From Bacteroides thetaiotaomicron (lineage in GTDB: Bacteria > Bacteroidota > Bacteroidia > Bacteroidales > Bacteroidaceae): a DNA stretch of 64,000 nucleotides. The stretch lies in contig DXOL01000057.1 in the NCBI GenBank assembly GCA_019412825.1, forward strand, positions 9,100 to 73,099. Reading direction: 5' to 3'. Below the pieces are notes generated by a model. The model searched no databases. It saw nothing but the letters and a program-made list of their open reading frames with translations, and was not told where the DNA came from. This document shows positions 7,712 to 58,056 of the stretch, piece by piece (the first letter of the stretch is position 1; the number at the start of each line of letters is the position of its first letter). Both the position numbers and the translations under genes were made by a program.

Positions 7712-7914
7712 CTTAGCTTGTATCAGACTATCCGGCAAGCATTATCCGAAGTGGAAATACTTGCAATCTGTTATTATATTGTACTTATTATTACTCATTT
7801 TTCGTCTATATTATCAATGTTATCGAATTTACTTCCGGTTCTCACTTACAAATATACAACATAAAAAACGGTTTGTCAAGTCCTGCACACTTCTTTCATA
7901 CATCTGATGACAAA

Positions 7915-17542: not shown

Positions 17543-18527
17543 CTACCTTAGGAGTAAACACCCCTTCGCTCTCACAAGGCATTTTCAGCGCATCCGGATG
17601 ACTTTCTATAAACGTCTGGATGTGCCGGATTCGCTTGTCTTCGAGGATTTCATCTACAGCAATCAGGATACCCGTCTCTTCCACATCACCAAACTCATAG
17701 TTGATAGCCGTCCCGAACATACGCATGGTAGGGCTTAAGCTCATATAGGCATTGACCAGCGGCGGGATATTATAACCTAGCTTGCGAATCTCCGTATTCA
17801 ATATCTTATAATCCTCTTTAAAGGTATCCTTGCAGAACAATGTTCTCAGTTCTTCATCGGAAGTTTCCAGAATCAGCGGTTCCATCGGTGTTACCAGCTC
17901 TTCCCGGTCATTAAAATGTTTCTTGAGGAAGTACAGAATCATGTCGCGTCCACGACGATGATAGCTGGGATACATGGTCACCTTGCCAAAGAAGTACTTC
18001 ACATTCGGCATCACCACTGTCAGCGCTCCCAATCCGTCCCACAGATTATCCAAAGCGAACAGCCCTTTACTGCCGGCACGTGTAGACTGATATTCCAGCG
18101 TCACAAAAGAACGCCCCAGCTCAATGGTCTGAGGCAGATATTCCTTAATAAACGCATCCGAGAAATGAAACATATGAGAAGTAGCCAGAATCGGAGCCCC
18201 CGCTTCGTCAAAGCGCACATCCGTTCCAAGCAAATACCGGTAACCACCTAATATTTCTTCCGCTTCCGGATTCCATACGATCAACTGCTTATATGGGTGT
18301 TCCATCGTGTCGTATTCGTCGATATCCATCGACAGGCCCGTTCCTCCACCCGCAGCACGAAAGGCTATTTCCCTCAAACGACCAATTTCACGCATCACAT
18401 TAGGTGCATTCTGATGGGTAATAATATAAATCTGATTATTACTTTTATTGGTCATTCGCAAGCGTCTATCTTCCGTCAATTCCGCTTTCAGCAGTTCTTT
18501 GCTTACCGGTTTAATAATCTCTTCCAT
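17514..18527 (-). CDS. glsB: GNAT/hemolysin-like N-acyltransferase (OlsB/GlsB-type N-acyl amino-acid synthase).
   Basis: 337-aa ORF directly upstream of a lysophospholipid-acyltransferase-like gene, the arrangement described for Bacteroides glycine-lipid synthesis. Block LREIAFRAAGGGTG...DEYD is present. Confidence 0.7.
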   Translation of the reverse strand: MEEIIKPVSKELLKAELTEDRRLRMTNKSNNQIYIITHQNAPNVMREIGRLREIAFRAAGGGTGLSMDIDEYDTMEHPYKQLIVWNPEAEEILGGYRYLLGTDVRFDEAGAPILATSHMFHFSDAFIKEYLPQTIELGRSFVTLEYQSTRAGSKGLFALDNLWDGLGALTVVMPNVKYFFGKVTMYPSYHRRGRDMILYFLKKHFNDREELVTPMEPLILETSDEELRTLFCKDTFKEDYKILNTEIRKLGYNIPPLVNAYMSLSPTMRMFGTAINYEFGDVEETGILIAVDEILEDKRIRHIQTFIESHPDALKMPCESEGVFTPKVVTPQEGCCR

Positions 18528-18551
18528 ATTCTTGTTATAGTGTTCTATCAG

Positions 18552-19370
18552 TTACAGTTTATATACAATGTCCTTTACATACTCCGCCCACTGCGCAGGA
18601 GTCTTCGATTTATCGAAAGTCTGCCAGGGAATCGGTTTGCCAAAAGTAACAGTAAAGGTTTTGTGACGGTTCTTAAACATCTCGTCCGCCAGATACAGCA
18701 TAGCGATATTGAATTTAATACCCAGTGCCTTACAAACATTCGCCAGATTGTAGAAGAAATCAGAGTTTCTGCCGCCAAAATGTACGGGAACTACGTCTCG
18801 CTTCGCCTGTATGCTTTTTATAATAAAGGTCTTCTTCCATTCGAGGTCACGGATCACGCCGTTCTGACGCCGAGAGCAAAGCCCCGCAGGAAACATGATC
18901 ATCTGGTCATCGGACTGGAATCCGGCTTCCACCATCCTCGGGAAATCCTTCGCCTGCTTTCCCGTCTTGTTAATAGGGACACAAAGCGGAGCCAAACCGC
19001 GCAGGTTCATCAGCAGGTCATTCACCAGATACTTTACTTTCCCGTTATAATGGCGTCCCAGCACATAGCCGAGTGCTACTCCATCCTGTCCTCCCAACGG
19101 GTGATTGGATACAAACGTATACAATCCGTCTTTGGGCAGGTTCTCAGCACCTTTCACCTCCACCTTCGCATCAAGGAACTCCATGCATGCCTCAAGGAAA
19201 TCCACTCCCAGTTTATCTTTCGATTCATTCAGGAACACATTAATCTCGTCCTGATGAACTATTTTCTTCAGATAAGAAACCACAAACTTAGGGATGTACT
19301 TATATTGCTTCGGAGCTTTCGTCCGAAGTATCTTATCGACATCGATTAAAAATAAAGAGTCATCAGTCAT
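18552..19370 (-). CDS. glsA: Lysophospholipid (PlsC-type) O-acyltransferase, GlsA-like.
   Basis: PlsC-family motifs: acyltransferase motif I is NHPLGGQDG, plus MFPAGLCSRR. The start is chosen at MTDDSLF (19370) rather than the upstream ORF-track start. Confidence 0.7.
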   Translation of the reverse strand: MTDDSLFLIDVDKILRTKAPKQYKYIPKFVVSYLKKIVHQDEINVFLNESKDKLGVDFLEACMEFLDAKVEVKGAENLPKDGLYTFVSNHPLGGQDGVALGYVLGRHYNGKVKYLVNDLLMNLRGLAPLCVPINKTGKQAKDFPRMVEAGFQSDDQMIMFPAGLCSRRQNGVIRDLEWKKTFIIKSIQAKRDVVPVHFGGRNSDFFYNLANVCKALGIKFNIAMLYLADEMFKNRHKTFTVTFGKPIPWQTFDKSKTPAQWAEYVKDIVYKL

Positions 19371-36566: not shown

Positions 36567-37016
36567 ATGGATTTATTTGACAAAGTCAGCGAAGACATTA
36601 AAAACGCAATGAAGGCAAAAGATAAAGTTGCCTTGGAGACTTTAAGAAACATAAAGAAATTCTTCATCGAAGCTAAAACAGCTCCGGGAGCCAACGATAC
36701 ACTGACAGACGAAGCAGCCTTGAAAATCATTCAGAAACTGGTGAAACAAGGTAAGGACTCTGCCGAAATATATATCGGACAGGGACGCCAGGATTTGGCT
36801 GACGGAGAACTGGCACAGGTTGCCGTAATGGAAGCTTATTTGCCCAAACAAATGACTGCTGAAGAACTGGAAGCTGCATTGAAGGAAATCATTGCCGAGA
36901 CAGGTGCTACCAGCGGAAAAGATATGGGTAAAGTGATGGGAGTTGCCTCCAAGAAGTTGGCAGGACTGGCAGAAGGCCGTGCTATTTCTGCAAAAGTAAA
37001 AGAGTTGTTGGGATAA
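36567..37016 (+). CDS. yqeY: GatB/YqeY domain protein.
   Basis: 149 aa. Typical YqeY blocks: KNAMKAKDKV.LETLR, AEELEAALKEIIAETGA.S.KDMGKVMG. Confidence 0.88.
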   Translation: MDLFDKVSEDIKNAMKAKDKVALETLRNIKKFFIEAKTAPGANDTLTDEAALKIIQKLVKQGKDSAEIYIGQGRQDLADGELAQVAVMEAYLPKQMTAEELEAALKEIIAETGATSGKDMGKVMGVASKKLAGLAEGRAISAKVKELLG

Positions 37017-37104
37017 CTCTCCACACCTCCTCCCAGAAATAAAAAAAACTTTTTGGTCTCACGGTCTCATTCCATTAAGATAAGCCGTAGATAATCAGCA
37101 ATAT

Positions 37105-37150
37105 AAAGAGTGAGAGATCCTTTTCAAGCAGGTATCTCTCACTCTTTTCT
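37105..37150 (+). terminator. Rho-independent terminator after yqeY.
   Basis: Perfect 14-bp stem: AAAGAGTGAGAGAT (37105..37118) with ATCTCTCACTCTTT (37134..37147). A T-rich tail follows. Confidence 0.7.
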
Positions 37151-37278
37151 TCATTCAAACTGTCTATTTTTCACGTATCTCTCATTCACTTCAAGGGTAT
37201 CTCTCATTGTTTTTAAGGCTTTATATGTTATCCTGCTACCTATATCCTTCTCTTTTGATACCTACATCTGCATGTTTT

Positions 37279-37398
37279 CTTACCGACATCTTCATCGTTC
37301 CACCCGGGTAGGACGAACTGTCTACTACTGTGACACGATCAGTTCACCTAAGTGCGATGATCATATCACCCGGGTAGAACGATGAAGATATCGGTGAG
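37279..37398. repeat. Element of about 120 bp with 32-bp imperfect terminal inverted repeats and a CACCCGGGT core.
   Basis: Left arm 37279..37310 is CTTACCGACATCTTCATCGTTCCACCCGGGTA. The reverse complement of the right arm 37367..37398 is CTCACCGATATCTTCATCGTTCTACCCGGGTG. Identity is 28/32 and the spacer is 56 bp. Confidence 0.85.
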
Positions 37399-37607
37399 AT
37401 AATATGATAATACCAATTGAAAGACAGGAGAATATAGGATCATTTGCATCTAAAAGAGCGGTAAACAATAACTTCTTTAGTATAAAACAGGATAAGAAGA
37501 ACTAATCATTGCCCTTTTCTAAGGTTACTTGATTTATGAAATCATCCTTTTTGCATCAAATTACAAGAATAATGACATTAAAAATAGCATTATATAAATT
37601 AAAGCTT

Positions 37608-37615
37608 TACTTTTG
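37608..37615 (+). promoter_or_regulatory. Bacteroides-type -7 box (TACTTTTG) upstream of the TPR/LuxR regulator gene.
   Basis: Exact match to TAnnTTTG, 91 bp upstream of the ATG at 37706. Confidence 0.45.
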
Positions 37616-37705
37616 TAACAAAACAAAGGAAACACTCCTGCTTTGACGACAGGCAAAACATTCTTTTTGGATAGTTTCTACAACGAACTAAATTACGACA
37701 AACAG

Positions 37706-39397
37706 ATGAAAAGCAGTACATTGATAACTATTCTATCTACATTCTTATTAGTAGGGTGCAGCAAACAACAATCCACTTTGGACAAACAACTGGATGAGGT
37801 TGAAAAAATCATAGAAGTAAATCCTGATAGCGCATCAAGCATACTGGAAAACATAGCATCTCCGGAACAGCTGGATGATAGAACTTTTGCACGTTGGTGT
37901 ATGTTATCAGGTAAAGTCACTGACGAAATCTTTAATACCCTATTGCCATCTTATCAATTCGAGCGAGCTAACGCGTGGTATTCATCCTACGGTAAATCCA
38001 ATGAACAAGTACAAATCTTAATTTATTTAGGACGTTCCTATGCAAATGACGGGGATTATGACAAATCAATGTCTATATATACTAATGCGTTAGAGATTGG
38101 TAAAAAAAACAAGCTATATAATTTAGTTGGATATACACATAGCTATATGGGTGATTTATATAGAGAAAAAGCGATGCGGACAGAAGCTATCAAAAAATAC
38201 AAAATGGCAGCCTACAATTTCAAAAAAGAAAATAACACTGATAGCTATGCTTGTGCTCTAAGAGATATAGGACGCGAATACGCATGCATTGATTCCATAT
38301 CCCGTGCCCTTGAAATTCTGATTATGGCAGATTCTATAGCCGAGACTTCAGAGAATAAAAATGTAAAAGCTTCAATCGAAAACACTCTGGGCAACATATA
38401 TGTAATGCAAAACAAATACGATAAAGCCAAAAAGTTCTTTTATAAAGCACTGGAAGGAAGAAACAAAATGCCAAATTACATGGCCTTAATTGACTTATAC
38501 ATAGCATCCGACTCTATAAACCAAGCAAAAGGATTTCTGCAAAAAATTCCTCAAGATAATCCGACTTATACTTATAGTATTAAATATCTATATTACCAGA
38601 TATACAAGTCAGAAAAAAAATATGAGCAAGCACTCGCTTATCTGGAAGAATGCACAGACTTAGTAGATTCCATTGTATATGCAGATAATCAATCTAAGAT
38701 ACTAAACATAGAATCCCAATATAACCACTTGAAAATTAGCAAAGAAGTAGATAATTTAAAAATGAAGCAACAAAGCTACATTATAGTTTCTGTTATCTGC
38801 ATTGCAGCTCTATTATTGATGATTATAGGATATTTATTATACAGAAGAAAAGTAAAAGAGAAAATTTTTAAACAACAAAAAGAATTAGATAAGATGAAGT
38901 TAAACCTATACACACTTTCTCTTGAACTTGAAAAGAAACGAAGTTCATTAAACACATTCAAAGAAAAAGACGAAAATTATGATAAAATGCAAAAAGAAAT
39001 AAATCACCTATTCACTAATTACAGGAAATTACAGAACAAGATATTAGTCGATTCTCCTTTATATAAAGAGCTAGTTTCTCTTACTAATAAAAATATGCCT
39101 AGAATTACAGAACCATTGATTAGCAAAGACCAATGGAAACTCATCGTCAACGAAATTACAAGTATCTATCCAAACCTCTACAATTATTTATTTAGCTTAT
39201 GCCCGACTTTATCAGACGAAGATTTTCAATATTGTTGTTTCTACCTATATGGATTCGACACTAATGCAGAAGCAAAATTATTAAATATTGCCACTGGATC
39301 TGTAAGGAGAAAGCATAACAGGCTTAAAGAAAAACTGAATATAACACTACCAAACAACTCCACTTTATATGAATACTTGATGAAAAACATGGGCTAA
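37706..39397 (+). CDS. Membrane-anchored one-component regulator: lipoprotein signal, extracytoplasmic TPR domain, TM helix, cytoplasmic coiled coil and LuxR/GerE-type HTH.
   Basis: Lipobox FLLVGCSKQ. TPR-like repeats (YLGRSYANDGDYDKSMSIYTNALEI, LGNIYVMQNKYDKAKKFFYKAL). TM segment SYIIVSVICIAALLLMIIGYLLY. C-terminal LSDEDFQYCCFYLYGFDTNAEAKLLNIATGSVRRKHNRLKEKL. The start is at MKSS (37706), not the upstream TTG. Confidence 0.8.
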   Translation: MKSSTLITILSTFLLVGCSKQQSTLDKQLDEVEKIIEVNPDSASSILENIASPEQLDDRTFARWCMLSGKVTDEIFNTLLPSYQFERANAWYSSYGKSNEQVQILIYLGRSYANDGDYDKSMSIYTNALEIGKKNKLYNLVGYTHSYMGDLYREKAMRTEAIKKYKMAAYNFKKENNTDSYACALRDIGREYACIDSISRALEILIMADSIAETSENKNVKASIENTLGNIYVMQNKYDKAKKFFYKALEGRNKMPNYMALIDLYIASDSINQAKGFLQKIPQDNPTYTYSIKYLYYQIYKSEKKYEQALAYLEECTDLVDSIVYADNQSKILNIESQYNHLKISKEVDNLKMKQQSYIIVSVICIAALLLMIIGYLLYRRKVKEKIFKQQKELDKMKLNLYTLSLELEKKRSSLNTFKEKDENYDKMQKEINHLFTNYRKLQNKILVDSPLYKELVSLTNKNMPRITEPLISKDQWKLIVNEITSIYPNLYNYLFSLCPTLSDEDFQYCCFYLYGFDTNAEAKLLNIATGSVRRKHNRLKEKLNITLPNNSTLYEYLMKNMG

Positions 39398-39530
39398 CTT
39401 TCATGTTTATATGAATATTTAGTTCCTGTCACTTTGGCTGTACACGCAAAAGTCTTAACTAACTGATTATCAACCATCATCTGTCTACGTCAAAACAATC
39501 ATTTTACTAAATGTAGCTCTCCATTTTTCG

Positions 39531-39538
39531 TAAATTTG
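39531..39538 (+). promoter_or_regulatory. Bacteroides-type -7 box (TAAATTTG) for the protease operon.
   Basis: Exact match to TAnnTTTG, 19 bp upstream of the ATG at 39557. It overlaps the TTG start in the ORF track. Confidence 0.5.
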
Positions 39539-39556
39539 CAGAAAACGTTTAGAAAT

Positions 39557-39931
39557 ATGAGAAAGTTAAGCATTACACTATTATTAATTGGCATTTCATT
39601 CATGACAATGGAAGCCAATAATTATTCAACAGACCACAAAACTTCAATCTATTTTAAGAAGTGGGATGACCGCCAGAAGTCAGTAGTTTTTTTACCTATA
39701 GAAGCTACTATAGAGGAAAATAACATCGAAGTACAGTTCTTTGAGAAACTGAATGAAGCCGTCACCTTCCAAGTTAAAGACAAAAATGGAAACATTGTAT
39801 TCCAAGACGTGGTGATTCCTGATAAGCTAGAAATCTATCAAATAGATTTAGATGGCTTTAAAGCCGATCAATATGAACTACTTTATATAGAAAAAGATGT
39901 GACTTTCATTGGAGAGTTTGAAATCGAGTAG
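39557..39931 (+). CDS. Small secreted beta-sandwich protein; DUF3244-like assignment is tentative.
   Basis: About 124 aa with a signal peptide (MRKLSITLLLIGISFMTMEA). Block NIEVQFFEKLNEAVTFQVKDKNGNIVFQDVV is typical of that family as I recall it. Confidence 0.65.
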   Translation: MRKLSITLLLIGISFMTMEANNYSTDHKTSIYFKKWDDRQKSVVFLPIEATIEENNIEVQFFEKLNEAVTFQVKDKNGNIVFQDVVIPDKLEIYQIDLDGFKADQYELLYIEKDVTFIGEFEIE

Positions 39932-39976
39932 GTAATAACCTCAGCTCATAAAATAATATTAACTAAAAATTATACC

Positions 39977-41263
39977 ATGAGAAAACTATTAATTATCGTA
40001 TCATTGTTTACAATGATGTCATGTCAAGAGAATCTTGATATGATTGACAGTGAAAACTTACCTGAAACAAGTAGTAGCACGAACCCTGAATTCAAAGTTA
40101 ATGAAGAAGACATTCAATCGACTATCGATGAGTTTTATGGAGTATCCTCTCTCTCTCCTACAAGGGTCGAGAATTCTGTTAATATAAAAAAAATAACTTC
40201 ATTGACTAAAAGCAAGACACGAAATATTGGCAGTGACTCTGATATAGATGTAAATGACATTCTTTATATAGTAAAGTTATCTAATGGAAATACTGCTTTT
40301 GTTGCAGCTGATAAGCGTGCCAAATCATTATATGGCATTGCAGATGGAAATGTAGAGCTTGACAATACTGATCTCATAAACAGTAACATACCCGGTGGAT
40401 TAGTTGCCATTTTAAGCAATGCAATAGCCGATATTAAGTATTCTATAAAATACAATACTGAAGTTAATGACGATTGGAAAACGGTAAACGTTTCCACAAG
40501 GGCAGACTCAGATATAGTTGGAGGAAAAGAAATGTTTACCATGGAGCCTAGGTGTCCAGTTTCTTGGCATCAATTCGCACCGTTTAATAATGCATGTCCT
40601 CTATATACCAACAGCAATGGAGATAAAGTACACTCTGCTGCGGGATGCGTTGCAGTTGCAGCAGCACAAGCTCTATTATGTTTATGGGATCGTTCAAAAA
40701 CTACTTTTTATTACTACACATTAATAACATCATGGGATCGGCTAAGCGAAATAAAACATGACAATCAGTTTATTGCCGGAAGTGATGAAGAAACTGATGT
40801 CGCAAATTTAATACATGAAATCGGACAAGCAGTAGGAATGAAGTATGGACCGAGTAGTAGTGCGAATACAGAAGATGCAGTAAAAGCCGTATGCCTTCTA
40901 TCACAAGGTTATCTCAAATACGAAAGTTCCCCTTTTAATGAAACTATTGAAAACACTTTAGTACAGAAAAGTGGTATAGTATGGTTATCTGCTAGAAATA
41001 GTAATGACGAGGGGCATTCAATGCTAATAGATGCATTACGACTCGTATTTACTACTGGGGCCTGTAGTACATGTGTAGATGCAACAAAATATGTAAAGAG
41101 ATATTTCCATATCAATTATGGATGGGGGGAAAGTTATAATGGCTATTATCTTTATATACCACAATCAGACAATTATGATCAGGATTTGAGATGGGAAGGC
41201 ACATCTAGAACCTTTCCATATAAAATGAAGGCATACAGTGTATGGCAAACAAAAAATGAATAA
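39977..41263 (+). CDS. C10-family (streptopain/SpeB-like) cysteine peptidase lipoprotein with an N-terminal pro-region.
   Basis: Lipobox FTMMSCQE. Catalytic Cys context HSAAGCVAVAAAQALL (compare SpeB GCVATA). His context EGHSMLIDA. Also HINYGWGESYNGYY (compare SpeB HINWGWGG). Confidence 0.88.
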   Translation: MRKLLIIVSLFTMMSCQENLDMIDSENLPETSSSTNPEFKVNEEDIQSTIDEFYGVSSLSPTRVENSVNIKKITSLTKSKTRNIGSDSDIDVNDILYIVKLSNGNTAFVAADKRAKSLYGIADGNVELDNTDLINSNIPGGLVAILSNAIADIKYSIKYNTEVNDDWKTVNVSTRADSDIVGGKEMFTMEPRCPVSWHQFAPFNNACPLYTNSNGDKVHSAAGCVAVAAAQALLCLWDRSKTTFYYYTLITSWDRLSEIKHDNQFIAGSDEETDVANLIHEIGQAVGMKYGPSSSANTEDAVKAVCLLSQGYLKYESSPFNETIENTLVQKSGIVWLSARNSNDEGHSMLIDALRLVFTTGACSTCVDATKYVKRYFHINYGWGESYNGYYLYIPQSDNYDQDLRWEGTSRTFPYKMKAYSVWQTKNE

Positions 41264-41687
41264 AATGAAATACAAATTAATCATAACTGCCCTTTATATA
41301 ATCATGAGCGCTTGTAATAATACCGATTCCAATGAATTCGCTTTCTCTAACTATAGTTGGGAATGCCCAAAAGAAGGAGGTAAGGAAATATTCACATCCA
41401 ATAAAGAAGAATGGAAAATTGATCAGTTAATACTTGATGGAATTATTATTAAAGAATATAGTCCAGAATATATTGAAGATAAAAATCAGAGTTTTCCACC
41501 TGACAAATTTGAATTTGATTTTTTCTCTTTTAAAATCGAAGGAAAGAAAGTTACTATTTGTATACTAGAAAACACAACAGGAAAAAGTAGAAGCATAAAA
41601 TTTATATGCAGACATGTAAATACATATCATACTATAACTGTTGTACAGCTACCTGATATCAATATCATGGAACACTCTGGAAACTAA
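41256..41687 (+). CDS. Small lipoprotein translationally coupled to the C10 peptidase; candidate cognate inhibitor.
   Basis: Its ATG overlaps the C10 stop (alternative ATG at 41265). Lipobox IIMSACNN. The mature protein is about 125 aa and all-beta-like, ending ...TYHTITVVQ (single Ig/BACON-like pattern). Confidence 0.65.
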   Translation: MNKMKYKLIITALYIIMSACNNTDSNEFAFSNYSWECPKEGGKEIFTSNKEEWKIDQLILDGIIIKEYSPEYIEDKNQSFPPDKFEFDFFSFKIEGKKVTICILENTTGKSRSIKFICRHVNTYHTITVVQLPDINIMEHSGN

Positions 41688-41806
41688 AAGTTTCGATGAA
41701 TAAGTATTATATAGTTGGCATAACAATAATACGAAAAGTATTCTCTTAAAAAGATAAAAGATCAATCAAAAGACACATTAATTAAACAATTTAATAATAA
41801 GTAATC

Positions 41807-43156
41807 ATGAAAACAGCAAAATCTAATATTCTAACAGGACTTACCTATGCTTTATCAGTAATAGGTTGTCTATCTGTTGCTTCGTGTGCAGATAATGGGA
41901 ATTACATTGAAAAGGATTCGAGTATAAAATCTGAGTCTGATAATTCAAAATATGACGAAAATAACTATAGTTTTAATACTATAAACTTATGGGGTAGTGA
42001 AGCGGCTGTAGTTGACAAAGGAGACTACTATATTTTTCAAGGTGACATTCACTTATTAAAAGAAGATTTAATCCAAACCAGAGGTGCTGCCAGAATAGAT
42101 CGTAGATGGCCTAACAATAAAGTTTATTATTCTGTGGACGGTATTCCGGCTATATATACAAAGTATATATACAAAGCAATAGAATGGATTGAGAATGGTT
42201 CATATATCGATATGGTACCCCGTTACAATGAAGGAGACTATATTCAATTCAATTTTTTGGATCAGAATGAATGGTCAGCATATTCCGATTATGTAGGCAG
42301 AAAAGGAGGAACTCAAAATATAGGACTATCCCGGGAAGCAATTATAAGCGTTGGCACTATTGCTCATGAAATATGCCATACTATTGGGATGTATCATGAA
42401 ATGAGCAGAACCGACAGGGACAATTACATACGTATTAATTTTGAAGGTATGGATGAAGATACACGATATCAGTATAAAACTTATGCCGAAATGAATCAGA
42501 ATGGAGTAAATGTGGGAAGTTTCGATTTTGGTTCTTTAATGATGTATTCTTCAGGTGGAGTCATGTACAAACTTGATAATAGTTACATAAGATCACAAAG
42601 AGATAGTCTATCAAATACTGACATGTTAACTCTGGCAACATTACAACCTATAGGAGACCAATTCAAATTTTTCGATCCATACGGTTATAATGAACCTTAC
42701 GACAGCGATTATGAATATAGAAGGACCAAAATCATACAATGTCCTGAAGGGGCTAAGATAGACTTCAAATTTCAATATAATTATAAACCTACATCATCTA
42801 ACTTAGGCGGATATACTGTAGACGATTTTAATGTCAGAACCATAATCTCAATTATCAATAGAAATACTAATCAAGAAGTTTATTCAAAAGAAATCCCCCT
42901 TGGCGTCACTACAACATGGACAGATATCTATTTAAGAGGTATCAATATACCACAAGGTGGATTCACTACAAAGGTAACATTAATAGGTTCAGTGAAGGGG
43001 ACATCTACCTCTGATAAATTAAATGCTCTAAAAAGAGTTATGTACAATCCAAGTGTATACTTACATCTCGATAAAGTTGAAATAAAAGGAGTAAATAAAC
43101 ATATTCCCAATGAATTTGGAAATGATGATAGAATCTTTACATTCATATCAATATGA
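41807..43156 (+). CDS. Astacin-family (M12A, flavastacin-like) zinc metallopeptidase lipoprotein with a C-terminal domain of about 170 aa and unknown function.
   Basis: Lipobox SVASCADN. Full astacin signature HEICHTIGMYHEMSRTDRDNYIRI (HExxHxxGxxHExxRxDRD). Met-turn GSLMMYS retains the Tyr. Confidence 0.88.
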   Translation: MKTAKSNILTGLTYALSVIGCLSVASCADNGNYIEKDSSIKSESDNSKYDENNYSFNTINLWGSEAAVVDKGDYYIFQGDIHLLKEDLIQTRGAARIDRRWPNNKVYYSVDGIPAIYTKYIYKAIEWIENGSYIDMVPRYNEGDYIQFNFLDQNEWSAYSDYVGRKGGTQNIGLSREAIISVGTIAHEICHTIGMYHEMSRTDRDNYIRINFEGMDEDTRYQYKTYAEMNQNGVNVGSFDFGSLMMYSSGGVMYKLDNSYIRSQRDSLSNTDMLTLATLQPIGDQFKFFDPYGYNEPYDSDYEYRRTKIIQCPEGAKIDFKFQYNYKPTSSNLGGYTVDDFNVRTIISIINRNTNQEVYSKEIPLGVTTTWTDIYLRGINIPQGGFTTKVTLIGSVKGTSTSDKLNALKRVMYNPSVYLHLDKVEIKGVNKHIPNEFGNDDRIFTFISI

Positions 43157-43521
43157 CAAACAGGATATATAACACTTTTGTATTTTTAATCATTATAGGT
43201 TTATGCTTTTATTCTTGTAATGACGATGAGAAGCAAAAAGAAAAATATAAAATAATGACCCTAAAAGTCGCAGCTTATAGAGATTATTATGTTGCACCAG
43301 AGCATGGTATAACTACCAATATATTGGGTTATGTTGTTACGGATGAAAACAACAAGACATACGTCATCGAAACAATCAAAGGTTTTGAAGATGAGTATGA
43401 AGAAGGGTATGAGTTTGTGATTAAAGTCAAAGCAGTAAACAAAAATCAAGGCGAACCGGTACAAGATCTATTGGGATATTATTATTATCTATTGGAAGTA
43501 TTAAGTAAGGAGAAAGTTTAA
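43153..43521 (+). CDS. Small lipoprotein translationally coupled to the astacin gene; DUF4377-like assignment is tentative.
   Basis: ATGA start/stop overlap with the astacin gene. Lipobox CFYSCNDD. Block IKGFEDEYEEGYEFVIKVKAV...YYYYLLEVLSKEK resembles the DUF4377 pattern (GF.YE.GYEY.L.V...Y.LVEV) as I recall it. Confidence 0.65.
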   Translation: MTNRIYNTFVFLIIIGLCFYSCNDDEKQKEKYKIMTLKVAAYRDYYVAPEHGITTNILGYVVTDENNKTYVIETIKGFEDEYEEGYEFVIKVKAVNKNQGEPVQDLLGYYYYLLEVLSKEKV

Positions 43522-43698
43522 GGCGCTGATTAGAAAACTGGTTATATAAAAAAATCCTCTATGAATTAGCAGTAGGGAGTGGTAGCTTTTTATCACTCCC
43601 TTATTGGACTATTCGTTTTTTATTGTAATATTGCATAATCATAAATAACTGCATGTAGACATATATTCATCTACATAAAAAACATTAATTAGAAAGAT

Positions 43699-44175
43699 AT
43701 GAAACTACATCAAACTAAACTACTATATGTTCTATTCGCACTTTTCATCTTAATTGGCTGCAAAGAAAATACTGATATCCCGCCATTTATTTTTAATTGT
43801 AAAGTAAAACTCATCAATAAGGACGGAAGCTCACCCTTGTCGGAAAATAAAGATAAAATAAATCAGATTACAGTGAACCTACTAAAGCCAATTAACAACG
43901 ATGCCAAATTGACTGATATATCATATCTTGAATATTACAATTGTCTTGATATACAAATTCGAGAATGGGAAGCCTGCATTAAAAATAATGGTAATTATGA
44001 ACAAGAGTACATTTTAGAAATCCAATATCCTGAAGTAATCCGGAAAGAAAAGGATACAATCAAAATAAAATATCAATTCAAGAATGCCCGTCCATCCATT
44101 ATTGAGGCTTATTATAATGATTTAAGACCAGCAAATATAAGCGTCAATGATGTCACTTTTGAAATTGATAATTAG
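43699..44175 (+). CDS. Hypothetical lipoprotein.
   Basis: 158-aa ORF with lipobox FILIGCKEN. AT-rich like the rest of the island. It is separated from the upstream operon by two hairpins. Confidence 0.55.
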   Translation: MKLHQTKLLYVLFALFILIGCKENTDIPPFIFNCKVKLINKDGSSPLSENKDKINQITVNLLKPINNDAKLTDISYLEYYNCLDIQIREWEACIKNNGNYEQEYILEIQYPEVIRKEKDTIKIKYQFKNARPSIIEAYYNDLRPANISVNDVTFEIDN

Positions 44176-44184
44176 AATTGGGAT

Positions 44185-44219
44185 GAGAAACTATTCCATA
44201 ATATTATGAAATAGTTCTC
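44185..44219. terminator. Bidirectional hairpin between convergent genes.
   Basis: GAGAAACTATTCCATAATATTATGAAATAGTTCTC is an imperfect palindrome lying between the stops at 44175 (+) and 44223 (-). Confidence 0.55.
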
Positions 44220-44222
44220 CAT

Positions 44223-45458
44223 TCATCGTCTATCGTGAAATCTATATCCAATCCCCAACATTAAATTGTTGGGGTCTTTAAACTTACTCAACTGATATCC
44301 CACATGCAGAAATAAATGGCGGGTAACATAAGTTTTGAGAGCCAATATTTGATAGAAACCTTCCGTATCATCGCCACTATATATCATATTTCGTCCGATA
44401 CCGGCATTGATGGAGAAAATAGGCATCACCAGTTCTGCCCGAAGAGACACCCCCACCGCAAATTGTTCGCGGAATGGAGGACGGTGAAACTTTATATCAT
44501 CCCCATAAGTTCCTACTAGCTTATAGTCCTTAATATTGGCACTCTCGTCAAATTGCGCATCCACAGAAAGTCCTGCCCGGAAATAGTTATTGAAATTATA
44601 CATCGGGGCAAAATTGAGACCAACGATTCCGAACGAACCGGGAACCAAAGTGGGGATACCTTCTTTAACGAATCCTCTTTTGCGAGTGGCGCCGTATACC
44701 AACAAGTCATAGCTGACGTGTGGCTTTATGTAAAGACGTTTGGGAGCAATTGCTCCGGACGCCTTATCTTCGGCATTAAAGGTACGTACAATGCCGACTC
44801 TCCCTCCGATAGTATTGAGACCTCCATTGGGATAACGCGTATTTCCATTGGAGAAATGAGTGAAGTCCACACCTACTGCAAGTTTCCACTGTGGATAAAA
44901 CTGCCAGTTCAAGACAAAGCCCAAATTGATATACGCATTGATTTTAGAACCGATAGCGTCATTGTACCAATTGCTGTGTTCATCATATTGTTTCCAACCG
45001 AAAGAAGCACCGAAATTCCACTCATAATCCAACGACAAACGGGATGAAAGCCGTACAATAGGTGCCCCTTGAAAAGCATATACCGCCACCGGATTTCCCA
45101 GTTCAGCGGAATTATAAAATGTATTATGCGAAACACCGATGCCCTGATAAGCATGAGGATACAACCTCCCCAAATAGGAATCTTTGCTGAACTGGAAAGC
45201 ATACTTCAAGTGCAGGGAAAGTGACCGATCAATTTTCTGCCGTTGTGCATTATCGCCTTCAAGGAAACTGTTTGTCGGAGCTACATAGCCCGGACGAACG
45301 TCAAAACCTATCTGATGGATGAGGGCATGGTTGGTGCTGTCATTCTGTTGCCTGACAGGTTTCACTACTGTCTGAGCATCCAATTTGCTGCCGACTGCCG
45401 AGAACAGCAGCAAGCAGATTATATACAGAGACCGTTTGGTATTCATATTTCTACTCAT
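44223..45458 (-). CDS. Outer-membrane acyloxyacyl hydrolase (PagL-like lipid A deacylase family).
   Basis: Signal peptide, beta-barrel-like alternating pattern and an HFSNGN motif (PagL His-x-Ser). The start is at MSRN, giving an ATGA overlap with the upstream gene's stop. Confidence 0.75.
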   Translation of the reverse strand: MSRNMNTKRSLYIICLLLFSAVGSKLDAQTVVKPVRQQNDSTNHALIHQIGFDVRPGYVAPTNSFLEGDNAQRQKIDRSLSLHLKYAFQFSKDSYLGRLYPHAYQGIGVSHNTFYNSAELGNPVAVYAFQGAPIVRLSSRLSLDYEWNFGASFGWKQYDEHSNWYNDAIGSKINAYINLGFVLNWQFYPQWKLAVGVDFTHFSNGNTRYPNGGLNTIGGRVGIVRTFNAEDKASGAIAPKRLYIKPHVSYDLLVYGATRKRGFVKEGIPTLVPGSFGIVGLNFAPMYNFNNYFRAGLSVDAQFDESANIKDYKLVGTYGDDIKFHRPPFREQFAVGVSLRAELVMPIFSINAGIGRNMIYSGDDTEGFYQILALKTYVTRHLFLHVGYQLSKFKDPNNLMLGIGYRFHDRR

Positions 45459-46402
45459 TTGATATTCTCGCGTGCTATATAACATTTTCCGGGCATTTTA
45501 CTTTGCAACGTACCGGTTATAGTACGTTGCCTCCCATTCTTAGGGTGAACAGCATAAAGGGTGTACTCCGTTTCGAACCACTCACATTCTAACAGCATGG
45601 TGATACGTTGAGTAGTTTTAGGCGGGATAGAAATCTCCTTCTTCTCCGTATCAGGGAAAGGCAAAGGCAGTGCTTGCTGCTCAGACGCATATTGCGCCTG
45701 TACACCGTTCATTCCCAACCATTCGTTTTCCATGCTTGGTATCTCTACTGTCGGATTATCTCCACCCAATAGCCGGAAAGCCTCAGGATCATCGCTTTTG
45801 AACACCACTTCATGGTGGGCGTCCTTGTAAGGGAATAACAGGCATGGGGAGGGAGTATCTGAATTATTAGATTGTATAAAACTCTTTGTTTCTTCCAGTC
45901 TCCATTCATGAGAATACGCATTTAAAGAATAAGTGATATGATCGAACACATATCTGTCCGACGGAGTAATTTCAACATATATCTCTTGTGATTCATAGTC
46001 ATTGCTCACTACAAGCATGAATCTAAAATAGTCGTTACGGACGTTTTCGCCCACTGTTATCTTTAGTTCTTTGGGGTTACTGCGTTGAATGATGAAATCG
46101 GTCAGTTTTTCATTGCATACAATCTTGCCTAATCCTTTCAGGTAAGCATCCTGGTTTCTCATTATCAGATTGTCGTCGGCATCATAAACTTCATATTGAT
46201 GGGTAAAGTCACTATCGTAAGTATACATCCAAACCAAATCCCAATTGGAGGATGCAAAACGAATAGTTACCTCATCACCATTCCCGTCCAAAGTAAATTC
46301 GGAATCGGAAGTCCGGAAGTCATCGACGAATACATCATCGTTACACCCATAAAGAACTAGAAAAATAAAAAGATATGCCGTTAAGTTTACGATTGTTTTC
46401 AT
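45455..46402 (-). CDS. Hypothetical lipoprotein, translationally coupled to the PagL-like gene.
   Basis: 315-aa ORF with lipobox LVLYGCNDD. I recognised no family. Confidence 0.7.
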   Translation of the reverse strand: MKTIVNLTAYLFIFLVLYGCNDDVFVDDFRTSDSEFTLDGNGDEVTIRFASSNWDLVWMYTYDSDFTHQYEVYDADDNLIMRNQDAYLKGLGKIVCNEKLTDFIIQRSNPKELKITVGENVRNDYFRFMLVVSNDYESQEIYVEITPSDRYVFDHITYSLNAYSHEWRLEETKSFIQSNNSDTPSPCLLFPYKDAHHEVVFKSDDPEAFRLLGGDNPTVEIPSMENEWLGMNGVQAQYASEQQALPLPFPDTEKKEISIPPKTTQRITMLLECEWFETEYTLYAVHPKNGRQRTITGTLQSKMPGKCYIARENIK

Positions 46403-46540: not shown

Positions 46541-48280
46541 ATGGATGCAGCAATAAAGAAAATACCTTATGGGATGACGGACTTCGAGAGAATCATTCTT
46601 GAAAACTATTACTATGTAGACAAAACACAATATATCGCCAAAGTAGAAAAAGTGACCTCCTTCTTCTTCTTTGTCCGTCCTCGACGTTTCGGAAAAAGCC
46701 TTTTCCTAAACATGCTCGGTTTATACTACGACATCAACCAAAAAGATAAATTCGAGAAAATCTTTGGTAATCTTTATATAGGCAAGCATCCTACGCCTGA
46801 TCGCAACAAATATCTGGTGCTTACACTCAATTTCAGTAGTGTAGCCGCCAATATGGATCGTTTGGAAGAAGCATTCAACACCTATTGCAAAATCGTAATG
46901 GATGGATTTGCAGAACGAAATGCTCATCTGTTAGGGAAAGAAGCCGTTGAAAAGCTACATGAATTAAAAACAGGAGATGCTTTATTGGGATCACTGTGCC
47001 AAAGCGCCCAAAACAAGGGACAAAAGATATATCTTATCCTCGATGAGTACGATAACTTTGCTAACAATATTCTGGTAGATTATGGCAATGAACGTTATCG
47101 CAGCATCACTCATGGCAGCGGATTCTTCCGTAGTTTCCTTAAAGTGGTAAAAGACTATTCAAGTTCAGTGATCGAGCGCATCTTCCTTACAGGCGTAAGC
47201 CCCGTAACAATGGACGATCTCACTAGCGGATTCAACATTGCGGATAATTATAGCAGTTCACCTATCTTTAATAATATGATGGGATTTAATGAACAAGAAG
47301 TACGCACTCTGATCGATTATTACAAAAGTTACCGGGAACTACCGCACACTACAGATGAATTAATAACCATCATGAAACCATGGTACGACAATTACTGTTT
47401 CGCCATGAAAGCACTAAAGGAACCGTCTATGTACAATTCAGATATGGTGCTCTATTTCATGAATCATTATATGCTGAATAAGGACATCCCTGACAACATG
47501 CTCGATGCTAATATTCGCACTGACTACAACAAGCTGCGCCACCTCATCCACGTAGACAAAACTTTCGGTGAAAATGCAAGCGTTGTACAAGAGATTGTAG
47601 AAAAAGGTTCTACTACCGGAATCATTGCAAATAGTTTCCCAGCCGAAGACATTATCAAACCGGAAAACTTTAAAAGCCTGCTCTACTATTACGGCATGCT
47701 AACCATCAGCGGAATGGAAATGGGTGAGCCCATACTGAGCGCCCCCAACTGGGCAGTGCGCGAACAACTTTACGGTTACATGGCAGACATCTACAAAGAT
47801 TCCGCCGACCTATATCTAGAGACAGATAAGCTGGTGGACCGAATGAAACGAATGGCATACAAAGGAGAATGGGAAAATTGCTTCACATACATTGCCGACC
47901 GCTTGAATGCCCAAAGCAGTGTTCGCGACTTCATAGAAGGTGAAGCTTATGTAAAAACCTTTATTTTGGCTTACCTCGGATTGACACATTATTATATTGC
48001 CCGTCCCGAATATGAAAGCAACAAAGGATATGCGGATATCTTTCTGCAACCTCGCCTGCTGCAACTTCCCGACATGGTATACAGCTACTGTATCGAAGTG
48101 AAATATGCAAAACGGGATGTTTCTGACACCGAGATAGAAAAATTGCTGTCCAATGCCAAAATACAACTGAAACAGTATGCAGCAAGCGAATGGATTCATC
48201 AAGACAAAGGGACCACAGAATTAAAGAGTATCGCATTAGTATTCCAAGGCTGGAAACTGGTGAGAGTGGAAGAAGTATAA
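46541..48280 (+). CDS. AAA-ATPase-like domain protein with a C-terminal PD-(D/E)XK nuclease-like domain (PDDEXK_9 type).
   Basis: N-terminal blocks IPYGMTDFERIILENYYYVDKTQYI and FFFVRPRRFGKSLFLNML, plus LILDEYDNF. C-terminal GYADIFLQP...YCIEVKY. Confidence 0.88.
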   Translation: MDAAIKKIPYGMTDFERIILENYYYVDKTQYIAKVEKVTSFFFFVRPRRFGKSLFLNMLGLYYDINQKDKFEKIFGNLYIGKHPTPDRNKYLVLTLNFSSVAANMDRLEEAFNTYCKIVMDGFAERNAHLLGKEAVEKLHELKTGDALLGSLCQSAQNKGQKIYLILDEYDNFANNILVDYGNERYRSITHGSGFFRSFLKVVKDYSSSVIERIFLTGVSPVTMDDLTSGFNIADNYSSSPIFNNMMGFNEQEVRTLIDYYKSYRELPHTTDELITIMKPWYDNYCFAMKALKEPSMYNSDMVLYFMNHYMLNKDIPDNMLDANIRTDYNKLRHLIHVDKTFGENASVVQEIVEKGSTTGIIANSFPAEDIIKPENFKSLLYYYGMLTISGMEMGEPILSAPNWAVREQLYGYMADIYKDSADLYLETDKLVDRMKRMAYKGEWENCFTYIADRLNAQSSVRDFIEGEAYVKTFILAYLGLTHYYIARPEYESNKGYADIFLQPRLLQLPDMVYSYCIEVKYAKRDVSDTEIEKLLSNAKIQLKQYAASEWIHQDKGTTELKSIALVFQGWKLVRVEEV

Positions 48281-48284
48281 AAAG

Positions 48285-49013
48285 CTAATCAAACAATTCT
48301 TTCAGTACATCCAGCGACTTTAATGCAGGAAAATCCGGCAGATGCAAACGATAATAATCATTCATAATCGTCAGGCAACGGGTGCGTTCCGCACGGCTCA
48401 TGCCAAATAAGTGCATCGTCTCATAATTCATGCGCATCAACTGGCGAAGACGTCCAGCCTCTTCGGGATTAATATAAGAAGAATGCAACTGCGGACGAGT
48501 GGAAGTGAAACAGGCATTCAGCAAATCAAAGTAATCACCGGTGTGATAATCTTCCAAATTCGGATACAACCCCAAAAAACGGGAAAGACGCATCAGAAAA
48601 ACCAGATGGAAATTGGCAAACCCTTCGCGACATTCGTCCAGCCAAATGACAGAATGCTGCAAATAAGCGAACAACGGACGGTTTTCAGCCTCTTCACGGA
48701 TAGCACGATACAGAAACTCTGCCAAAAAAAGTGCCATTGAAGACTTGTACGGGTCATAAGGAATGGAGGTAAAAGGATAAAAAGACTTCGCCTCTTTTAC
48801 CCGATAAAGAGTGGCATTCGGACGGTAATCCGCCTCAAACTCAATGAAAGCCAAAGGCTGAAAGAGTACTGACTTGACTGCCGCCTTCCGCGAACGGGGT
48901 ACGGGAACGAGAAAAGAAGTCCGCCCGGATAACTCCGTGTACATATCTACAATGATAGAAGTATCATTATATTTAAGCGTATGTAGAACTATTCCTTTCG
49001 TCTTTTGCAGCAT
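48285..49013 (-). CDS. recO: DNA repair protein RecO.
   Basis: 242 aa. N-terminal OB-fold block [26 protein letters not shown], with the length and pattern typical of Bacteroidetes RecO. Confidence 0.85.
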
Positions 49014-56987: not shown

Positions 56988-57180
56988 GAACACATGACTG
57001 ATTGTATGCGTACGGAATTTAGGTGAGATGTTCTACAGAAAAGGCTACTGTGAAGTATCCGAGTGGTATTTTATACCCTTTATTCGCATGTTTAGTTTCC
57101 CACAACATGCTAAATTTCCTTATAAAACGGCACTTCATTGAAGGACTGTTTTATTAATTGTTTGTTTTGTTTGTGTTGGT

Positions 57181-57212
57181 GCACCCGTCCAAGCGAGGAT
57201 GGGTGCGCTTTT
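57181..57212 (+). terminator. Hairpin plus T run downstream of the pilus operon.
   Basis: GCACCCGTCC-AAGCGA-GGATGGGTGC followed by GCTTTT. Confidence 0.5.
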
Positions 57213-57592
57213 ACTCGTCCAATAAAAGACTATCATTTGCATACATGAAACAGAAGGTGCAAATGATACGCTTGTTTATATCCGTACATCTATAAACACT
57301 TTACTGTTTCTCATAGTTCACGACCATACTCCATTAATCGCTAAAACAATCATCCGATTATAAGAAAAGTTGCAAATACATCGTTTTTTCAAAATCAATA
57401 TAACAATGAGAATGGAAGTCCATAAAGTCCTTTATATATAATAAGGTGTAAATATAGCGTATTATCGATAGCCTTACAGACAGTGATATTTTTTTCGACA
57501 AACCGTAATCTCATATTTTGCTGAAAATCAAGCACTATAACCCCACCCCACAGAAAAAAAGAGAAAAAACTACATATTTTTTTCGTGAATTG

Positions 57593-57623
57593 TTTGTCAG
57601 TTTCAAAAAAGTTCCTACCTTTG
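57593..57623 (+). promoter_or_regulatory. Consensus Bacteroides promoter (TTTG, 19-bp spacer, TACCTTTG) for tRNA-Glu and rpsT.
   Basis: TTTG at 57593..57596, a 19-bp spacer, and TACCTTTG at 57616..57623. The tRNA starts 65 bp downstream. Confidence 0.65.
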
Positions 57624-57687
57624 CATCCGCAATCGAGAAACAAACACTGATTCGAGAGAGCAAAAAGCAGAAATGCAACAACAGGAT

Positions 57688-57759
57688 GGCCCGTTCGTCT
57701 ATCGGTTAGGACGCAAGATTTTCATTCTTGAAAGGGGGGTTCGATTCCCCCACGGGCTA
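57688..57759 (+). tRNA. tRNA-Glu (anticodon UUC); CCA is not encoded.
   Basis: Hand-folded cloverleaf. Acceptor GGCCCGT/ACGGGCT, D stem GTCT/GGAC, anticodon stem CAAGA/TCTTG with loop TTTTCAT, 4-nt variable loop, T arm GGGGG-TTCGATT-CCCCC, discriminator A. Confidence 0.88.
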
Positions 57760-57801
57760 CAAATAAAAAGAATAAAGAACTAAAAAAATAGATTAGTCGA
57801 A

Positions 57802-58056
57802 ATGGCAAATCACAAATCATCACTGAAGAGAATCAGACAAGAAGAGACAAGAAGACTTCATAACAGATATTATGGTAAGACCATGAGAAATGCTGTTAGA
57901 AAACTTCGTGCAACTACTGACAAAACAGAAGCTGTTGCAATGTATCCTGGCATCACTAAGATGTTGGATAAGTTAGCTAAAACAAATGTTATTCATAAGA
58001 ATAAGGCTAACAATCTGAAATCTAAGCTGGCTCTTTACATCAATAAGCTCGCTTAA
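57802..58056 (+). CDS. rpsT: 30S ribosomal protein S20.
   Basis: 84 aa. [13 protein letters not shown]... is typical of S20. Confidence 0.95.

Follow-up and report, generated by a model that had tools for sequence, protein, structure and literature searches.

The locus described here occupies positions 37608-44175 of a 64-kb stretch of Bacteroides thetaiotaomicron DNA (contig DXOL01000057.1 of assembly GCA_019412825.1; the whole stretch is referred to as the window), and encodes a putative membrane-anchored regulator, a secreted DUF3244 protein, two proteases and three small lipoproteins. One of the closest described systems is the BT_3442-BT_3433 cluster of strain VPI-5482, located at the same site 3' of ftsZ and starting with orthologous tetratricopeptide repeat (TPR) and DUF3244 proteins, BT_3442 and BT_3441, which are followed by lectin-like and MACPF proteins (PMC2954219). 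Both clusters carry lipoprotein-rich cargo and have a PagL-like outer-membrane protein (OMP) encoded at the far end, but the cargo of the VPI-5482 cluster is composed of trefoil-lectin-like and MACPF proteins, while that of the window is composed of a C10 peptidase and an astacin with partner lipoproteins. The 2010 work took BT_3442 for a protein-interaction module serving a transport system and not for a transcription regulator, and it described no replacement of the cargo (Xu et al. 2010; PMC2954219).

On the protease side, the Bfp/Bfi and Btp/Bti operons (Thornton et al. 2010, 2012; PMC2873492, PMC3462683) combine, like the window, a SpeB-like C10 lipoprotein with a small secreted beta-rich protein, and the BT_2217-2221 cluster also has a DUF3244 gene ('btiZ') in first place. 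The window differs from them by the addition of an astacin with a DUF4377 partner, the Btp loci have no described regulator or operator, and for the small lipoprotein that accompanies the C10 peptidase of the window (sLP1), no similarity to a solved structure was detectable. The BSAP MACPF loci resemble the site in another way, since they encode strain-variable, surface-exported lipoprotein effectors at a fixed position adjoining an outer-membrane beta-barrel gene. BT_3439-type MACPF proteins, which are carried by alternative alleles of the site described here, are classed structurally with BSAPs (PMC12853789); nevertheless, the window has no MACPF gene, and antibacterial activity is not known for BT_3439 or for the proteases.

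Polymorphic toxin/immunity loci provide a further parallel, with a conserved 5' part, variable 3' effector modules each carrying a small cognate gene, mosaic recombination at the module borders and persistence of orphan partners. Their effectors are C-terminal domains of one large protein, whereas those considered here are separate lipoproteins, and the likeness is one of architecture only. Additionally, in the ToxR/ToxS and VtrA/VtrC systems a bitopic regulator joins a periplasmic sensor to a cytoplasmic DNA-binding domain, and its gene lies beside that of a small secreted beta-rich protein. In comparison, the regulator of the window has a reversed predicted topology, with a C-terminal LuxR-type domain instead of an N-terminal winged helix, its TPR sensor is lipid-anchored, and its partner gene appears to have its own regulated promoter.

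The original prediction had described 37608-44175 as a single AT-rich accessory island of horizontal origin. Because the regulator and the DUF3244 gene are fixed at the site while the cargo is exchanged, we regard it as probable that this 'island' is instead one allele of a regulated, swappable effector slot, in which a replaceable cassette follows a conserved head. Located at 37.6-39.9 kb, the head contains the regulator, a presumed operator, a promoter at 39531 and the secreted DUF3244 protein, and the cassette is followed by a conserved right flank:

37608-37615, plus strand: Bacteroides-type -7 box TACTTTTG, 98 bp 5' of the regulator start, a putative promoter
37706-39397, plus strand: regulator of the BT3442 family, 563 aa, with NF053779 and TPR Pfam matches
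39439-39495, plus strand: operator-like element of the form repeat-palindrome-repeat, with direct repeat TGTACACGCAAAAG at 39439-39452, palindrome CTGATTATCA at 39463-39472 and direct repeat TGTCTACGTCAAAA at 39482-39495
39531-39538, plus strand: -7 box TAAATTTG of the cargo operon, from a TAnnTTTG search
39557-39931, plus strand: DUF3244 protein (BT3441-like), 124 aa, with a signal-peptidase-I type signal; first gene of the operon
44223-45485, minus strand: PagL-like outer-membrane beta-barrel gene (PF09411, 8.5e-11); conserved right flank

The plus strand carries all seven open reading frames (ORFs) of the 37-44 kb region where the original prediction had placed them, with two starts revised: for the regulator, ATG 37706 is likelier than TTG 37643, as it gives the 563-aa form called in all relatives, and for the DUF3244 gene TTG 39536 is replaced by ATG 39557 (124 aa), because the former lies inside the -7 box of the promoter. 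That -7 box is of the Bacteroides type and coincides with the promoter proposed earlier at 39531.

An exact look-up of the YqeY protein led to ten B. thetaiotaomicron loci, in which yqeY is followed by the 563-aa TPR gene in 9/10 cases and the 124-aa DUF3244 gene comes next in nine; the exceptions are disrupted by insertion sequences (IS), and the cargo after the DUF3244 gene differs between loci. The comparison was extended to 113 loci from genome and metagenome contigs, a number that excludes a later scan of viral contigs, and a regulator-only scan of genome contigs gave at least 4 loci. The order at the site is ftsZ, yqeY, regulator, DUF3244 gene, cargo, PagL-like OMP gene, lipoprotein gene and recO. 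The regulator and the DUF3244 gene are found there in every sampled B. thetaiotaomicron locus with an intact site, the loci that break this rule being those with IS or mobile-element insertions, and also in a sister species (FtsZ 95% identical), which keeps the same frame down to recO and carries still other cargo. Nucleotide homology with every strain is unbroken from the dcw genes to 39931, the stop codon of the DUF3244 gene, and begins again at 44219, immediately next to the convergent PagL-like gene; therefore, only 39932-44218 is accessory. The protease part had thus been rightly called accessory, and recO (48285-49013, minus strand) does lie downstream, with three genes between it and the cassette, but the proposed borders do not hold, since the comparison of relatives leaves the regulator and the DUF3244 gene on the conserved side.

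The reading in which all of 37.6-44.2 kb, regulator included, was acquired horizontally as a strain-specific island draws on composition and divergence. The guanine-plus-cytosine (GC) content is 0.297-0.363 in 7 consecutive 1-kb windows (37001-44000), against ~0.44-0.53 (about 0.47) in the flanks, and falls below 0.37 in only 2 of the 57 remaining 1-kb windows (7001-8000 and 57001-58000), which bears out the AT-richness first noted by eye. Gene by gene, it is 0.32 for the regulator, 0.33 for the DUF3244 gene, 0.36 for C10, 0.29 for sLP1, 0.33 for the astacin, 0.31 for its partner sLP2 and 0.30 for the last lipoprotein (the orphan), compared to 0.51 for ftsA and ftsZ and 0.44 for both yqeY and the PagL-like gene. 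Moreover, the regulator (82-90% nucleotide identity between strains) and the DUF3244 gene (80-89%) diverge more than ftsA, ftsZ and yqeY (98-99%), with the yqeY-regulator spacer at ~88%, which suggests either import or ancient lineages, and related modules sit on mobile elements. However, low GC extends over the conserved head as well and is therefore no mark of recent acquisition, homology breaks at 39931 and not at 37608, and regulator and DUF3244 gene hold the same position in all intact sampled loci and in the sister species. ORF, profile, Rfam and repeat searches of 37-44.3 kb revealed none of the features of a mobile genomic island, that is, no integrase or transposase, no tRNA or attachment site and no flanking direct repeats; a 42-nt imperfect direct repeat (39302-39343 and 43505-43546, 71%) is probably a chance match, and Rfam gave no known RNA in the region. 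The island reading is consequently very unlikely as a whole and largely refuted for the head, which appears instead to exist as deep allelic lineages.

Mobile DNA often enters the slot in other strains (L004, L008, L010, L017, L018 and L016). IS66 or IS4-type elements have landed within the astacin gene, ahead of the regulator or between it and the operator, and in L016 a resolvase/Mfa-fimbrial/Mob segment stands in place of the DUF3244 gene and the cargo.

The module is also found away from this site. In B. intestinalis, a 55%-identical regulator with a DUF3244 gene and MACPF cargo is located away from ftsZ; a mobile element (resolvase, ParA, RadC, AbiEii) carries the regulator, DUF3244 gene and MACPF cargo adjoining a C39-peptidase ABC exporter; a copy in a defence island has three small uncharacterised proteins as cargo; and in Phocaeicola sartorii, at a different site, the regulator is followed by a large OMP gene, with the convergent PagL-like gene and a ~316-aa lipoprotein gene kept. 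In the mobile element (L109/L110), small ORFs and the bacteriocin-type exporter follow the regulator-DUF3244-MACPF module at 16368-18560, which suggests a combined antagonism island.

For the site itself, ORFs between the regulator and the PagL-like gene were clustered to define architectures, of which B. thetaiotaomicron has at least 8:

M1 (VPI-like): p443, MACPF, p140, MACPF, p144, s90
M2: p443, MACPF, p144, p127, with or without a large OMP
P1: C10a437, 157-aa partner, C10b428, sLP1, astacin, sLP2, s90
P2: C10b428, sLP1, astacin, sLP2, s90
P3 (window only): C10b428, sLP1, astacin, sLP2, orphan
P4: C10b428, sLP1, sLP2, orphan, without the astacin
P5: three other C10-like proteins with 251-aa proteins
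Hybrid: MACPF cargo, then sLP2 and orphan

The features of the P3 cassette, all on the plus strand except for the strandless palindrome that closes it, are as follows:

39977-41263, plus strand: C10 (SpeB-like) cysteine peptidase lipoprotein, 428 aa; first gene of the variable cassette
41268-41687, plus strand: sLP1, small lipoprotein, 139 aa
41807-43156, plus strand: astacin-type (M12A) zinc metallopeptidase lipoprotein, 449 aa, with a pro-peptide and an uncharacterised C-terminal region of ~190 aa
43153-43521, plus strand: sLP2, small lipoprotein of the DUF4377 family, 122 aa, its start overlapping the astacin stop (ATGA)
43699-44175, plus strand: 'orphan' lipoprotein, 158 aa
44189-44216: AT-rich palindrome between the convergent orphan and PagL-like genes, with a repeat pair 94% complementary; by its position, probably a bidirectional terminator at the right end of the operon

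The original prediction knew of no described system with this combination of a C10 peptidase and an astacin, but the combination is not rare: a 98%-identical C10 is found on at least 999 contigs, and P1, with two C10 peptidases and an astacin, is the common form of the cassette. Colinearity of the window with P2 extends to 43777, beyond which the orphan takes the place of the terminal segment of P2. Compared with P4 (L063), the astacin gene is a clean 1.3-kb presence/absence difference (41761-43081), P4 keeping its last 75 bp, and the hybrids join at 43149, the start of sLP2. The junctions (39932, 41761/43081, 43149 and 43777) lie at gene boundaries, and the cassette of the window is itself a mosaic; exchange by homologous recombination through the conserved flanks and the gene boundaries would be the simplest mechanism. 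Regulator alleles at least 87% identical to that of the window accompany 16 protease and 0 MACPF cassettes, while the ~84% class accompanies 20 MACPF cassettes and 1 protease cassette and the 72-78% class is mixed, a distribution in which regulator allele and cargo class are linked but separable.

The regulator exceeds the cut-off of the NCBIfam model NF053779, 'BT3442 family protein' (1009.6 bits against 940), residues 22-583 of the long ORF aligning with model positions 1-563 of 563. From the N-terminus it contains a lipobox (LVGC, aa 15-18), ~340 residues of TPR, a transmembrane helix (aa 358-379), a coiled-coil-like segment and a C-terminal domain that is conserved in the alignment, with a LuxR-fold helix-turn-helix (HTH) assigned to aa ~500-545. 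The protein is thus predicted to be bitopic, its TPR sensor in the periplasm, its DNA-binding domain in the cytoplasm and a single helix between them. Lipobox, single hydrophobic helix and an HTH C-terminal to it give a ToxR-like bitopic layout at the level of predicted topology, and Trans_reg_C (the OmpR/PhoB winged helix) has no match in the regulator, which therefore lacks the N-terminal winged helix of ToxR. The earlier label 'ToxR-like' can be retained for the mode, a membrane-anchored one-component regulator, but not for family membership, since a LuxR-type DNA-binding domain at the C-terminus sets the protein apart. In the RRNPP systems, as in the window, TPR and HTH share one protein whose neighbour is secreted (here a 124-aa protein); on the other hand, the TPR of the window's regulator is predicted to be periplasmic, its HTH is at the opposite end, and the adjoining gene encodes a folded domain, not a peptide precursor.

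In the case of the term 'LuxR', significant sequence support was not obtained: PF00196 (LuxR/GerE) has no Pfam match to the regulator even at E<=10, comparison of the C-terminus with Pfam and PDB sequences returned nothing significant, a weak match to TraJ has an E of 0.004, and the sole match of a profile of 18 diverse regulator C-termini is to the LuxR-type HTH of EvgA (E 0.57), with the register as expected. The fold gives the label its support. An AlphaFold2 model of aa 431-563 has a predicted local distance difference test (pLDDT) score of 87.9 (alignment of 31 sequences), and its top Foldseek matches are mostly LuxR/NarL-type HTH domains, superposed at ~2.7 Å over 57-62 columns with E of 0.8-3 and none under 0.8, among them EvgA, RcsB, DesR, VraR, TraR, VpsT and 3CLO, a LuxR-type protein of B. 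thetaiotaomicron. The modelled C-terminus is accepted, at fold level only, as a LuxR-fold four-helix HTH.

The operator-like element is located in the spacer of 159 bp that separates the regulator gene from the DUF3244 gene. In 9 aligned loci, which include loci elsewhere in the genome with regulators just 53-61% identical, a core is invariant, namely ACTGAT(T/A)(A/T)TCA, TGT..A some ten bases on and TAnnTTTGCA, while the rest of the spacer averages 59% identity. A single copy of the composite motif is present in 93/113 loci with the strict pattern and in 106/113 with the relaxed one, across 1.47 Mb that contain a single extra, unlocated relaxed match; it is always on the coding strand, lies 95 bp before the DUF3244 ATG in 70 loci, and is missing mostly from loci on contigs that end shortly after the regulator. 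Loci whose cargo starts with a gene other than DUF3244 have the motif as well, and in Phocaeicola it is located upstream of a 197-aa gene that precedes the regulator. The palindrome CTGATTATCA occurs once in the window, and intergenic matches to TAnnTTTG between 36900 and 44300 are only two, at 37608 and 39531, with none in the internal gaps. A scan for sigma-70 promoters and intrinsic terminators, which is uninformative for Bacteroides, stayed at background level. The 80 viral-contig matches to an operator probe were rejected as chance, because none adjoins a regulator or DUF3244 gene. Conservation of this kind is strong evidence that 39439-39495 and 39531 form a regulatory site with a single regulated promoter; the adjacent regulator would be the one to bind the site.

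Data from VPI-5482 bear on the expression of such operons. In co-culture with Akkermansia on mucin, BT_3439-3441 are induced 60-96 fold and BT_2217-2221 30-120 fold, these being the two most induced operons (PMC8264420). The former is the MACPF allele of the slot, beginning at the DUF3244 gene, and the latter is the known C10 cluster btpZ-btpB-btiB-btpC, with BT_2221 'btiZ' as first gene (PMC3462683); since they are the most induced together, operons led by DUF3244 genes seem to be co-regulated units. A further operon of this type, BT_3221-3223, is repressed 10-15 fold in low iron (PMC10434189).

The DUF3244 protein of the window matches PF11589 (1e-16; 61.1 bits, cut-off 25) and PDB entry 4G5A (0.002), and its score with NF053775 (BT3441 family) is 198.2 bits, slightly under the equivalog cut-off of 210; by these matches it is a member of the domain family and a divergent relative of BT3441. 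Its counterpart BT_2221, annotated as DUF3244 (PMC10434189), carries a signal-peptidase-I signal and is encoded upstream of btpZ, on a shared transcript (PMC3462683). It was proposed, as BtiZ, to be a staphostatin-like inhibitor of the adjacent C10 peptidase, and the same could be said of the window, where a small, beta-rich, secreted protein is encoded directly 5' of the C10 gene (45-bp gap); in VPI-5482, BT_2221 shares its transcript with btpZ (PMC3462683). This assignment, which would make DUF3244 an inhibitor and not a generic leader gene, is nevertheless highly improbable, because the family (80 members among the collected loci) leads both MACPF and protease cassettes and thus heads some without any protease (MACPF types, L014, L109 and L111). 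In addition, the gene stays with the regulator upon cargo change, as the homology break at its stop codon indicates, and the C10 peptidase already has an obligate downstream partner of its own. The published assignment of BtiZ as an inhibitor is probably wrong.

The family assignments proposed earlier hold by profile search for the TPR regulator, the DUF3244 protein, the C10 peptidase and the astacin; the products have the secretion signals described, six being lipoproteins and the DUF3244 protein having a signal-peptidase-I type signal. In public databases, exact or near-exact proteins are named 'C10 family peptidase' and 'M12 family metallopeptidase' (Bacteroides thetaiotaomicron), and the small ones 'hypothetical'. 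The C10 protein matches PF01640 over model positions 1-194 of 194 (9e-24; 85.2 bits, cut-off 26) and has, as read from the sequence, the catalytic pair Cys224 (GCVA) and His347 (GHSM) and a YGWG motif, as expected for a C10-family peptidase. A word-based search with it gave 7 clusters and no homologue under 74% identity, a search that did not reach the Btp paralogues of VPI-5482. The astacin matches PF01400 (3e-25; 89.6 bits, cut-off 22.5) and astacin structures at 2e-19, and when aligned with crayfish pro-astacin it displays every M12A signature, that is, the HExxHxxGxxHE zinc site HEICHTIGMYHE (aa 187-198), the SxMxY Met-turn as SLMMY and the FxGD Asp switch of the pro-peptide as FQGD.

Less can be said of the partners from their sequences. 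No Pfam, NCBIfam or PDB relative of sLP1 was found, staphostatins in the PDB included, and its single-sequence AlphaFold2 model (all-beta, pLDDT 52) was too poor for a fold comparison; still, sLP1 has the layout of the Bfi/Bti proteins, being small, with a lipoprotein signal and a coupled gene (an alternative ATG at 41256 gives an 8-nt overlap with the C10 stop) and a low-confidence all-beta prediction. The score of sLP2 against PF14302 (21.1-21.7 bits) is under the cut-off of 25, but 15/19 of its relatives match that model (best 4e-13), and it is classed, by this profile evidence, as a divergent DUF4377 member of a family that forms 35 representative clusters in an exhaustive search. The family profile also gave a borderline match to the lipoprotein 9OME (E 0.0035), partly driven by the signal peptide. 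In Acinetobacter CipA, the all-beta DUF4377 domain is needed to bind complement factor I, a protease (PMC9361855), a parallel that offers a lead for sLP2. The orphan is 57% identical (tblastn) to the obligate partner of the second C10 peptidase, C10a437, which the window strain lacks, and its gene has 69% nucleotide identity to L007 14735-15201. Family-against-family comparison (hhalign) found the sLP1, sLP2 and orphan families mutually unrelated beyond the signal peptide.

The coupling of each protease to a small lipoprotein gene, noticed earlier in the window, proved general. C10b428 and sLP1 occur together in 17/17 loci, their genes abutting or overlapping, and sLP1 is never alone; astacin and sLP2 occur together in 14/14 loci with a 4-nt overlap; and C10a437 and its own partner in 10/10 loci. 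Proteases without a downstream partner number 0/41, whereas sLP2 is found without the astacin in 5 loci and the orphan-type partner alone in 6, the window included. Since partners may stand alone but proteases never do, this is the pattern expected of inhibitor- or immunity-type partners, and, as a comparison of gene content, it is the best evidence on function and suggests such a role.

The mechanism that we propose combines these elements. The TPR domain would sense an envelope or extracellular cue, upon which the regulator would switch on the promoter, and a single transcript would yield the DUF3244 protein, the C10 and astacin zymogens and the partner lipoproteins. Nearly all cargo proteins have an acidic stretch after the lipobox Cys, which resembles the Bacteroides lipoprotein export signal, and surface display of BSAP-1 requires such a signal (PMC12853789). 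The lipoproteins, with acidic residues after the lipidated Cys, would accordingly be sent to the cell surface or to outer-membrane vesicles, sLP1 and sLP2 would neutralise or chaperone their cognate proteases in the envelope of the producer, and the orphan would be the partner of a protease missing from the window strain. The cassette (39932-44218) would be exchanged between strains by recombination at gene boundaries.

As to what the proteases act on, we lean slightly, and tentatively, toward competing bacteria. The proteases may also be directed at host or mucus proteins or at nutrients (mucin, immunoglobulin or dietary protein), with the small lipoproteins shielding the producer's own envelope and the alternation with MACPF genes being the product of a recombination hot spot, a reading that we consider possible though somewhat doubtful. 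C10 peptidases (SpeB, Bacteroides Bfp/Btp) and astacins have been discussed as degraders of host proteins (PMC3462683, PMC2873492), the VPI-5482 loci are induced in mucin medium (PMC8264420), and neither a receptor nor demonstrated killing activity is known for BT_3439 (PMC12853789). However, this host-directed reading leaves unexplained why partner genes persist without their protease beside other cargo, and why the head is associated with MACPF toxins and a bacteriocin-type exporter.

A further and rather unlikely reading is that BT3442 and BT3441 form an extracytoplasmic signalling pair, in which the TPR domain senses the DUF3244 protein and an auto-inducing, allele-specific ('pherotype') switch fires anti-Bacteroidales weapons, with the partners as immunity proteins. 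If so, the weapons of the window would be surface- or vesicle-borne proteases instead of pore-formers, and the orphan would guard against the protease of sister strains.

Several points weigh against the effector-slot reading as a whole. The link between regulator and promoter is a presumed one, and some other factor might occupy the operator; for the HTH, no sequence match reached significance, and all Foldseek E-values lie above 0.8. A role of BT_2222 as paralogous regulator and an operator at BT_2221 are conjectural, and the literature search found no mention of BT_2222. Co-transcription of the cargo is deduced from gene spacing, the absence of internal -7 boxes and data on the allele of another strain, and the orphan may be transcribed on its own because of a hairpin and a near-consensus -7 box in the gap before it. 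The compared loci are related sequences, so their counts are not independent events, and PDB sequence and profile searches detected no similarity of sLP1, sLP2 or the orphan to any known inhibitor.

The sLP2-orphan spacer (43522-43698) contains a hairpin, GGGAGTG...CACTCCC, followed by a T-rich run, the near-consensus -7 box TAATATTG and a second inverted repeat, ATGTAGA...TCTACAT. At the other end of the locus, the yqeY-regulator spacer has a strong GC-rich inverted repeat of ~105 nt (37285-37392), with arms CATCTTCATCGTTC(C/T)ACCCGGGT and a minimum free energy of -48 kcal/mol on the plus strand and -64 kcal/mol on the minus strand. This element may be a repetitive extragenic palindrome, a miniature inverted-repeat transposable element or the like, or a structured terminator; in L010 an IS is inserted right after it (homology ends at 37401).

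Beyond the PagL-like gene, upstream of it and overlapping it, a 315-aa lipoprotein is encoded on the minus strand (45455-46402), and this pair is kept beside the regulator even in Phocaeicola. The lipoprotein falls into two allele classes between strains, with 73-78% and 94-96% amino acid identity to that of the window, and is another polymorphic surface gene, while the PagL-like protein stays 97-98% identical. Between the lipoprotein gene and recO, positions 46541-48280 encode a predicted AAA-ATPase with a PD-(D/E)XK nuclease (PF09820, PF08011); in the sister species (L020-L025), recO comes directly after the lipoprotein orthologue (324 aa). Elsewhere in the window, the low-GC patches 7001-8000 and 57001-58000 have values of 0.353 and 0.357, and the second, which may be another accessory insertion, lies beside a tRNA (57688-57759) that is the only Rfam match in the window.

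The components of the locus are of known kinds, including C10 peptidases with small partners, astacins, MACPF clusters, TPR and LuxR domains, and NCBI family models exist for both head proteins. The literature search found no description of the head as a regulator, of the operator, of the replacement between MACPF and protease cargo or of the astacin/DUF4377 pairing. Export is where gut Bacteroides strains differ most, and these differences determine which of them persist in a gut community. One conserved head can, on this reading, drive either MACPF toxins or protease/partner cassettes, which provides the BT_3439 MACPF cluster, and probably also the C10 clusters, with a concrete candidate regulator, none having been described for either. 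A natural pair of inducible promoter and regulator with a defined cargo junction could also be used to engineer secretion in Bacteroides. Additionally, the possibility is raised that the C10 peptidases and astacins of Bacteroides may be, beyond host-directed enzymes, competition factors with immunity-like partners.

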